A stretch of 64,000 nt of DNA from Escherichia phage MN03: sequence record NC_070990.1. One strand, 5' to 3'. Position numbers and translations under genes: made by a program. How positions within the stretch are numbered: the first letter of the stretch is position 1; each line of letters starts with the position of its first letter. The notes below the pieces were generated by a model, which saw only the letters and a list, made by a program, of their open reading frames with translations, ran no database searches and was not told the origin of the DNA. Below are positions 52,759 to 53,133 of this stretch, piece after piece.

Positions 52759-52944
52759 TTATAGCATACAAAGAATAATAACAAGAGGTAGTGTTATAGC
52801 AAAATGTACCAGAACAACACTACCTAGCTTGATAGCTTTAACATCCTCTTCTGCTGGGTTTTCTTTAATTGCTAAATTTCGAGCTTTATATATAACAGTA
52901 CCAACTATTAACGACCACACGGCCCACACAATCAGTGAAATCAT
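52759..52944 (-). CDS. Small two-helix membrane protein (61 aa)
   Basis: Hydrophobic N- and C-terminal segments; paralogue of 52954..53133. Confidence 0.45.
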   Translation of the reverse strand: MISLIVWAVWSLIVGTVIYKARNLAIKENPAEEDVKAIKLGSVVLVHFAITLPLVIILCML

Positions 52945-52953
52945 ATCAAATCC

Positions 52954-53133
52954 TTATGCAGTCAGGAGGTGAAGCAGGAATGGGATAACAACAGCTACGA
53001 TAACCATGATAGTTGATGCTGTTTGAATCTCACCTTTCTTATCAGGGGTTTCTTCAATAAGCTTACCAGAAGCCCAATAAATACCACCACCAATAAAGAT
53101 AGCCCAAATACCCCATACGATTGCTGATAACAT
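52954..53133 (-). CDS. Small two-helix membrane protein (59 aa), paralogue of 52759..52944; not in ORF track
   Basis: ATG 53133 with AAGGA SD; MLSAIVWGIWAIFIGGGIYWASGKLIEETPDKKGEIQTASTIMVIVAVVIPFLLHLLTA. Confidence 0.4.
   Translation of the reverse strand: MLSAIVWGIWAIFIGGGIYWASGKLIEETPDKKGEIQTASTIMVIVAVVIPFLLHLLTA

Follow-up and report, generated by a model that had tools for sequence, protein, structure and literature searches.

Paralogous hairpin membrane-protein genes of the phiEco32 gp66 family next to a Dps-like gene in a Kuravirus genome

We found that the window (by which we mean the whole stretch of DNA analysed here, 64,000 nucleotides of Escherichia phage MN03) carries on its minus strand two adjacent small genes, here P1 and P2, and we hold with very high confidence that both are real and that they encode paralogous hairpin membrane proteins. 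Both genes are already known, being annotated as 'hypothetical protein' in related phages, and they represent the phiEco32 gp66 family (P2) and an accessory paralogue of it (P1).

Results and discussion

Two paralogous genes in a Kuravirus genome

The window belongs to a Kuravirus (phiEco32-like) lytic coliphage. Over the 3 kb that surround the pair, it matches 97 phage records, all of them phiEco32-group podophages of Escherichia or Shigella (Gordonclarkvirinae: Kuravirus, Nieuwekanaalvirus, and Suseptimavirus), and the closest record to this stretch is phiEc_1 (99.5% identical). The plus strand of the window carries a late structural operon and the minus strand carries replication and nucleotide-metabolism genes; there, the gene order around the pair is a 109-aa ORF, a Dps-like gene, P2, P1, a 58-aa ORF, thioredoxin, and ThyX. 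The features that we refer to are the following.

53194..53805, minus strand: Dps-like ferritin-fold protein, directly upstream of P2
53159..53187, minus strand: 11-bp stem-loop with three G-U pairs, between the Dps-like stop and the P2 SD (terminator-like scan and predicted fold)
53143..53148, minus strand: SD TAAGGA of P2, read from the sequence and invariant in nine genomes
52995..53294, minus strand: 99-aa ORF, spurious, from the ORF list behind the original prediction
52954..53133, minus strand: P2, 59-aa gene with an ATG start, ortholog of phiEco32 gp66 (phi32_66, YP_001671811)
52951..52956, minus strand: P2 stop TAA overlapping the P1 SD TAAGGA, read from the sequence
52759..52944, minus strand: P1, 61-aa gene with an ATG start, diverged paralogue of P2 and accessory copy
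52570..52746, minus strand: 58-aa soluble ORF with a GTG start, PHROG 19504 (unknown function; E=1.5e-45)

In all eleven genomes inspected, namely the window and ten relatives from three genera, P2 directly follows the Dps-like gene. According to the SU10 paper, the corresponding genes of that phage, CDS65-68, are middle genes, and by synteny with SU10 we infer that P1 and P2 would likewise be expressed in the middle phase.

The original prediction had proposed a pair of paralogous ORFs here, and both are present on the minus strand, encoding 61 AA (P1) and 59 AA (P2). Their paralogy is borne out by BLASTP (33% over 58 residues, E=2e-10; identity 32-33%), by a shuffle test, and by membership in the same PHROG. 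Because composition alone can align hydrophobic proteins, we shuffled the sequences within three segments (helix 1, tip, and helix 2), keeping the composition of each; the P1/P2 local alignment scored 94 vs. 32.5 ± 7.8 for the shuffles (z=7.9), and 0 of 5000 shuffles reached 94. Full-length matches to PHROG 9296 (unknown function) were obtained for both proteins (P2, E=3.6e-34, profile positions 1-59 of 59; P1, E=2.3e-30), and 13 alignment columns are invariant across both paralogue groups (M1, S3, I5, W7, W10, G15, Y19, E28, P30, I36, S40, P51, and L56).

The strong SD claimed for P2 is also there: TAAGGA lies 9 nt upstream of the P2 ATG and 6 nt upstream of the P1 ATG. P1 shares the reading frame of P2 across a spacer of 9 nt, and the overlaps of stop and SD suggest translational coupling. 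Codon usage, scored as log-odds trained on the 21 long genes of the window, was favorable for both (+0.70 per codon for P2 and +0.34 for P1). The T-rich third codon positions that had been pointed out are real (T3 0.44 in both P1 and P2) but not distinctive, as the long genes of the window reach 0.42. The P2 ortholog has exactly 59 codons and no indels in 10 out of 10 relatives from three genera, its dN/dS is 0.12-0.64 where computable, and close relatives differ mainly at third positions. P2 is 100% identical to phiEco32 gp66, and P1 is annotated as a CDS in 172-1, EcM-vB1, ECBP2, and KBNP1711. Hence, one of the two genes was indeed missing from the ORF list first used, but from that list only, since public records contain P2 as phiEco32 gp66 and carry annotations for each of the two.

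The overlapping 99-aa ORF is spurious

The 59-aa frame had been judged more plausible than a 99-aa ORF that overlaps it, and codon score, conservation, and frame integrity independently favor the same choice. We rejected the 99-aa ORF as a gene because its codon score is negative (-0.39 per codon; T3 0.20-0.25) and its frame is broken in relatives: it is cut to 44-70 stop-free codons in six to seven of the ten relatives examined, with interruptions in Bas90, Paul, EP335, ECBP2, KBNP1711, EK010, and Bas89. A 1-nt difference in the intergenic A-run reduces it to 70 codons in Bas90 and Paul, and in other genera only 44-56 codons are free of stops. The 99-aa ORF has no family match in Pfam or PHROG and is not annotated in public records.

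A conserved stem-loop precedes P2

Owing to its three G-U pairs, the 11-bp stem between the Dps-like stop and the P2 SD forms well on the sense strand only. Across nine genomes in three genera the stem is invariant, its loop differing in both sequence and length, and in EP335 one G-U pair of the stem has become A-U. Next comes AACUUAUUUAUAAGGA, a tract moderately rich in U that reaches the P2 SD, and an Rfam search returned no meaningful match. Judged from sequence and predicted fold, the stem-loop may be a weak or leaky terminator, an attenuator, or an RNA-stability element; a leaky terminator could keep the membrane proteins below the level of the Dps-like protein.

P1 and P2 are hydrophobic hairpins with a charged tip

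The claim that both proteins are two-helix membrane proteins is confirmed by hydrophobic segments at about residues 1-21 and 38-59/61 and by a hairpin in the AlphaFold2 model. The hydrophobic arms start at the first residue and run to the last, and the roughly 16 residues between them form a charged stretch holding every charge save one histidine in helix 2. For P2, AlphaFold2 (run on a 16-sequence family alignment) gave helices at residues 2-28 and 30-58 with a mean pLDDT of 93.9 and a pTM of 0.72; the hairpin turns at the invariant E28-x-P30, and the tip is polar and helical. No other small protein among the 87 codon-supported ORFs of the window (64 kb) has two hydrophobic segments, as P1 and P2 do.

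Membrane topology follows the positive-inside rule, and the K/R residues of P1 and P2 are confined to the tip (three to five) with none at the termini. We therefore consider it most likely, from the predicted charge distribution, that both proteins sit in the inner membrane with N-out/C-out orientation and a cytoplasmic tip. Neither terminus carries a hydrophilic extension that would need translocating: the C-terminal ends read ...PFLLHLLTA and ...LVIILCML, and the last charged residue falls by position 47 or 55. Helix 1 was also considered as a signal peptide and rejected, as it has no positively charged n-region and a Tyr occupies position -3 of the sole A-x site.

Two TM helices, a short polar proline loop, and a glycine-rich helix 1 are also the hallmarks of hairpin 'proteolipids' such as the F-ATPase c subunit and Pmp3/YqaE, in which the termini lie opposite the loop, as in P1 and P2. 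The resemblance is one of shape only: neither P1 nor P2 matches Pfam ATP-synt_C or Pmp3 at E≤1, and, unlike in proteolipid-type hairpins, the P1/P2 alignment holds no conserved membrane-embedded carboxylate.

Range of the gp66 family

Searches at E≤1 returned no Pfam match for P1 or P2, no NCBIfam match bar one at chance level, and no PADLOC defence family for P1, P2, or the 58-aa ORF; a profile search of the PDB with the P1/P2 family found no match either. An exhaustive search of 1.84 billion representative proteins with a HMMER profile yielded four same-family clusters at E≤1e-10, one further match being discarded as a spurious repeat protein, and word-indexed protein searches returned near-identical phage proteins only. 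When the AlphaFold2 model was compared with viral structures, the sole significant match was the 172-1 ortholog; the other fold matches (E>1) were dismissed as generic helical hairpins, and a two-helix hairpin is not discriminating in fold searches.

By tblastn, the family occurs in 96 phage records, all from this subfamily and all Escherichia or Shigella phages. The gp66 slot (slot 1) is occupied in every one of the 96, and 43 of them carry two copies (P1-type copies counted at ≥80% identity), for 139 places in total. We found nothing in the literature on the gp66 family, and the BASEL paper holds nothing on P1/P2-type genes. CRISPRi-ART data for phage PTXU04 were considered as a source and set aside, since that phage is a Xuquatrovirus and not a Kuravirus. 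Mass spectrometry of SU10 virions detected CDS65, CDS67, and CDS68, with six peptides for the Dps-like protein, but not CDS66; judging from the sequence, this is unsurprising, as the tryptic peptides of the protein are either very hydrophobic (24 and 26 residues) or very short.

Slot-1 alleles diverge at the tip

Slot 1 holds three allele types: A (Kuravirus), A' (EP335 and Bas89), and B (ECBP2, KBNP1711, and EK010). A or A' is 49-54% identical to B, and genus does not predict the type, as EP335 and KBNP1711 are both Nieuwekanaalvirus. The slot-1 protein of the window is 52.5% identical to its ECBP2 ortholog, the 8th lowest identity among the 64 genes that the two share (mostly ~80%), vs. 80-93% for its direct neighbours (Dps-like, 82%; thioredoxin, 80%). 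Between types, change is concentrated in tip residues 22-38, where pN is 0.58-0.60 and about equal to pS, values that are indicative only, coming from 17 codons with saturated pS. Within types, a dN/dS of 0.05-0.15 indicates strong purifying selection on the tip.

Taking a highly mosaic 344-aa membrane/tail-associated protein (26984..28018) as a stand-in for an entry-machinery partner, we compared its type with the slot-1 allele type and found no correlation between the two. KBNP1711 has a type-B allele yet a 95% identical 344-aa protein, and SU10 and EcoN5 have type-A alleles yet 344-aa proteins that are only 61% and 44.5% identical, respectively.

P1 and the 58-aa ORF form a cassette exchanged between genera

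Three architectures occur downstream of the Dps-like gene. P2 is followed directly by thioredoxin in phiEco32, Paul, Bas89, and Bas90; by the 58-aa ORF and then thioredoxin in EK010 and EP335; and by P1, the 58-aa ORF, and thioredoxin in the window, 172-1, EcM-vB1, ECBP2, and KBNP1711. The 58-aa ORF thus travels with P1 but is also found without it; its protein is 96-100% identical in 172-1, EcM-vB1, ECBP2, KBNP1711, and EK010, 59% identical in EP335, and absent from phiEco32, Paul, Bas89, and Bas90. The TAAGGATTT junction at the P2 stop also precedes the thioredoxin gene in phages without P1. Right after the slot-1 stop, the junction reads GGATTT or GGGTTT in six of nine genomes, before P1 or the thioredoxin gene alike; in Bas89 and EP335 it reads GGTTTTT, and in EK010 the start codon of the next ORF overlaps the slot-1 stop.

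Over 186 nt, the P1 DNA shows 0 differences from either ECBP2 or KBNP1711, and the 58-aa ORF DNA is 98-100% identical to theirs, vs. 42-80% for the flanking DNA. Against ECBP2, P1 and the 58-aa ORF take the top two places in protein conservation among the 64 shared genes, ahead of the major capsid protein. Near-identity of P1 and the 58-aa ORF across genera between diverged flanks points to a cassette that was recently exchanged between genera. In addition, P1 is 41-46% identical to type-B slot-1 alleles vs. 32% to its own neighbour P2; as P1 is nearer to the slot-1 alleles of other genera than to P2, a simple local tandem duplication is not the best description, and by sequence comparison the pair looks like divergent alleles stacked by recombination instead.

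A possible role in conflict or in host takeover

The anatomy of P1 and P2 leaves contacts possible only within the bilayer or through the 16-residue tip. We tentatively propose, as our preferred reading but one that falls well short of being probable, that both are membrane-embedded binders acting in phage-phage or phage-host conflict and not lysis proteins: the conserved hydrophobic arms would insert into the membrane and pack there, specificity for a partner would lie in the variable tip, and a second allele would broaden that specificity. In its leading specific version, the proteins would keep out superinfecting relatives by preventing their genomes from entering at the inner membrane. A family that occurs in every record, is allelic and tip-variable, and has horizontally acquired copies fits the pattern typical of conflict genes, and superinfection exclusion, one of the functions first suggested for the pair, appears compatible with this evolutionary pattern. 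Against the conflict reading, rapid change in so small a protein can also reflect weak constraint, and the covariation of allele type with the 344-aa protein came out negative.

Pfam includes an Imm family, and neither Imm and HK97 gp15 nor any other characterised protein showed a sequence or fold relation to P1 or P2 in Pfam, PDB, and viral fold searches. T4 Imm is the precedent, as it shows that a lytic phage can carry an exclusion protein: by binding the tape measure protein, this small protein of the inner membrane stops the genome from being translocated, a mechanism also proposed for HK97 gp15 (bioRxiv 10.64898/2026.03.06.709160). Imm thereby acts on an entry-channel protein at the membrane, which suits a hypervariable conflict-type gene subject to horizontal exchange. 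Both are small phage inner-membrane proteins made before the late phase, as P1 and P2 are predicted to be. Imm is, however, larger (83-94 AA vs. ~60 AA) and modelled with four helices vs. two. Moreover, Imm binds a tape measure protein, which this podovirus lacks, so that an Imm-like mechanism would need to target its ejection proteins, and with a cytoplasmic tip almost nothing of P1 or P2 would be periplasmic, so that an entry block would need to act in the bilayer or at its inner face.

Equally plausible is that the proteins are host-takeover modulators, hairpins that would bind a host inner-membrane protein (a transporter, a respiratory or division component, an FtsH-like protease, or an abortive-infection membrane effector) and alter its activity in the middle phase, to the benefit of the single infection and not for the exclusion of other phages. 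The genes stand in the middle block among metabolic and replication genes, the slot-1 gene is present in 96/96 records, as expected of a function needed in every infection, and a variable tip that is probably cytoplasmic suits a cytoplasmic or inner-leaflet partner; counter-defence genes, too, typically show allele diversity and accessory copies. On the contrary, PADLOC, Pfam, and NCBIfam gave no match that would identify such a modulator, and a conserved host target alone would not predict tip alleles so different in phages of the same host species.

P1 and P2 stand apart from the lysis genes

The original prediction had also suggested holin/antiholin-like functions, which were not supported: the lysis genes lie elsewhere, the proteins have no charged C-terminal tail, they belong to a middle-gene block, and they match no lysis family. 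The lysis genes of the window are as follows.

21388..21606, plus strand: annotated holin (PHROG 11161), directly upstream of the endolysin in the late operon
21636..22127, plus strand: GH24-type endolysin, in the late operon
41512..41886: Rz-like spanin

Two-TM class II holins (S21) are oriented N-in/C-in. P1 and P2 resemble class II holins and pinholins (phage 21 S68) in size (about 60-70 AA) and in their two hydrophobic helices, and the small-residue motifs of helix 1 (GGG / G-T) could aid oligomerisation, as a holin that permeabilises the membrane, or an antiholin or lysis-timing protein that regulates the true holin, might require. In contrast to the phage 21 S68 type, they lie off the lysis cassette (the distance is ~31 kb to the holin and endolysin and ~11 kb to the spanin, and the block is the middle and not the late one), lack a charged, hydrophilic tail at the C-terminus (both proteins stop within helix 2), have a predicted termini-out topology that is the opposite of the class II one, and match no holin or lysis-labelled family in Pfam, NCBIfam, or PHROG. 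Both the SU10 authors and the CPT annotators also place the Kuravirus holin at the annotated position, away from P1 and P2. We regard a lysis function as very unlikely; the little credence that we leave it reflects an annotated holin that is named from its position and PHROG label and has a single hydrophobic (TM) segment.

An improbable role in anchoring neighbouring gene products

Phage proteins able to organise replication at the membrane exist, phi29 p16.7 being one, and P1 and P2 might by analogy act as a membrane anchor or assembly factor that tethers the Dps-like protein, the thioredoxin and nucleotide-metabolism proteins, or replication. The invariant position after the Dps-like gene in eleven genomes would agree with such a tie, as would the stop/SD overlaps that suggest coupled translation. 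However, the sole soluble part available for tethering is the 16-residue tip, which diverges far faster than Dps (82%) or thioredoxin (80%). Furthermore, the SU10 paper finds the Dps-like gene and thioredoxin to be common to the distant relatives 7-11 and GAP52, and CDS66 is not among the genes shared with them; our profile search found the family nowhere else. We consider this role improbable, to about the same degree as lysis.

That P1 and P2 are non-functional, as chance ORFs or decaying remnants, is hardly credible: the ORFs are very short and CDS66 escaped detection in SU10 virions, but constant length without indels across three genera, dN/dS <1 with mostly third-position changes, good codon usage, the presence of an SD, and a confident AlphaFold2 model all contradict it.

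Implications for the gp66 family

Annotations should include the 59-aa gene and omit the 99-aa ORF, which is already the practice in public records of related phages. With phiEco32 gp66 and PHROG 9296 the pair shares both family and synteny, the difference being that phiEco32 carries one copy and the window two. The result will not surprise a specialist and opens no long-standing question, and the stacking of alleles and the tip-focused divergence are only modestly new points. This group of phages, which encodes many uncharacterised small membrane proteins, the gp66 family among them, is used in therapy studies, and its molecular biology is poorly known. With a universal, fast-diverging slot, divergence concentrated in the tip, and a second allele exchanged between genera, the gp66 family is a reasonable and cheap candidate for exclusion or counter-defence assays, for which the BASEL phages Bas86-94 offer natural variation in copy number (one in Bas89 and Bas90, two in Bas86, Bas87, and Bas88) and allele type.

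A bolder version of the conflict reading, which we think unlikely though less so than lysis or anchoring, would make the gp66 slot a diversifying immunity-allele locus of virulent prolate podophages, with tips that recognise the entry machinery of rivals or another membrane-proximal component. If this were true, a second allele, gained across genera, would widen the range of Gordonclarkvirinae competitors that are excluded, and the family would amount to a specificity system akin to colicin immunity operating within lytic phages.

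Intergenic sequence between the Dps-like gene and P2

Two features occupy the intergenic stretch that separates P2 (the 59-aa gene for a predicted two-helix membrane hairpin) from the Dps-like gene.

53159..53187, tail to 53143, minus strand: stem-loop separating the Dps-like gene from P2
53188..53193 region, minus strand: length-variable A-run, compared with Bas90, Paul and 172-1

The 11-bp stem, G-U pairs included, does not change across three genera, and its loop is variable; possible roles for the stem-loop are leaky transcription termination, attenuation or a part in RNA stability. 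The fold prediction also allows the Shine-Dalgarno region of P2 to base-pair with sequence at the end of the Dps-like ORF. The A-run differs by 1 nt between isolates (CTAAAACC vs. CTAAAAACC), and it is this difference in length that decides whether a given isolate has the long, spurious 99-aa frame open or closed.

Lysis genes

The lysis genes are split in the window.

21388..21606, plus strand: annotated holin (PHROG label), single hydrophobic segment
21636..22127, plus strand: endolysin
41512..41886, minus strand: Rz-like spanin

The annotated holin and the endolysin sit within the late tail-gene operon, and the spanin is encoded on the other strand at a distance of ~20 kb, amid replication-type genes. 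In the texts searched, the holin assignment is based only on position and the PHROG label.

Variable genes and an exchanged block

Also in the tail region is a gene that is extremely mosaic within the subfamily.

26984..28018, plus strand: 344-aa gene annotated ‘membrane protein’

Its identities fall in bands (near 100, 95, 72, 62 and 44%) that do not track genus, and distant homologues (23–30% identity), of which one is annotated DUF6453, occur in Dhillonvirus-like siphophages and those of Klebsiella.

Near thioredoxin and ThyX, several relatives carry additional genes.

L005 3060..3542; L006 (ECBP2) 3497..3964; L009 3578..4045; L010 344..853: HNH homing-endonuclease-like ORFs
L001 (172-1) 1618..1749; L002 (Bas90) 1618..1752; L007 (KBNP1711) 4150..4284: 44-aa gene annotated ‘membrane protein’, adjoining ThyX

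The HNH-like ORFs, together with extra small ORFs, lie between thioredoxin and ThyX or beside the dCTP deaminase gene; the window carries none of these, nor does it have a counterpart of the 44-aa gene, ThyX (end 51621) being followed directly by a 77-aa ORF (51371..51604).

The remaining features concern P1, the diverged 61-aa paralogue of P2, and its neighbour.

52570..52746, minus strand: 58-aa ORF, soluble, GTG start, PHROG 19504 (unknown function)
52570..52953, minus strand (L006 2621..2995; L007 2621..2995): P1 + 58-aa ORF block, ~385 nt

Searches of Pfam and PADLOC gave no match for the 58-aa ORF. Its presence or absence is independent of P1; EK010 and EP335 have the ORF but lack P1, and the EK010 version starts with an ATG that overlaps the stop codon of the slot-1 gene (the P2 position). 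The whole block is 98–100% identical in DNA to that of ECBP2 and KBNP1711, phages of other genera, whereas the flanking genes share 42–80% identity with theirs, and this disparity in sequence indicates that the block is a recent recombination cassette between genera.
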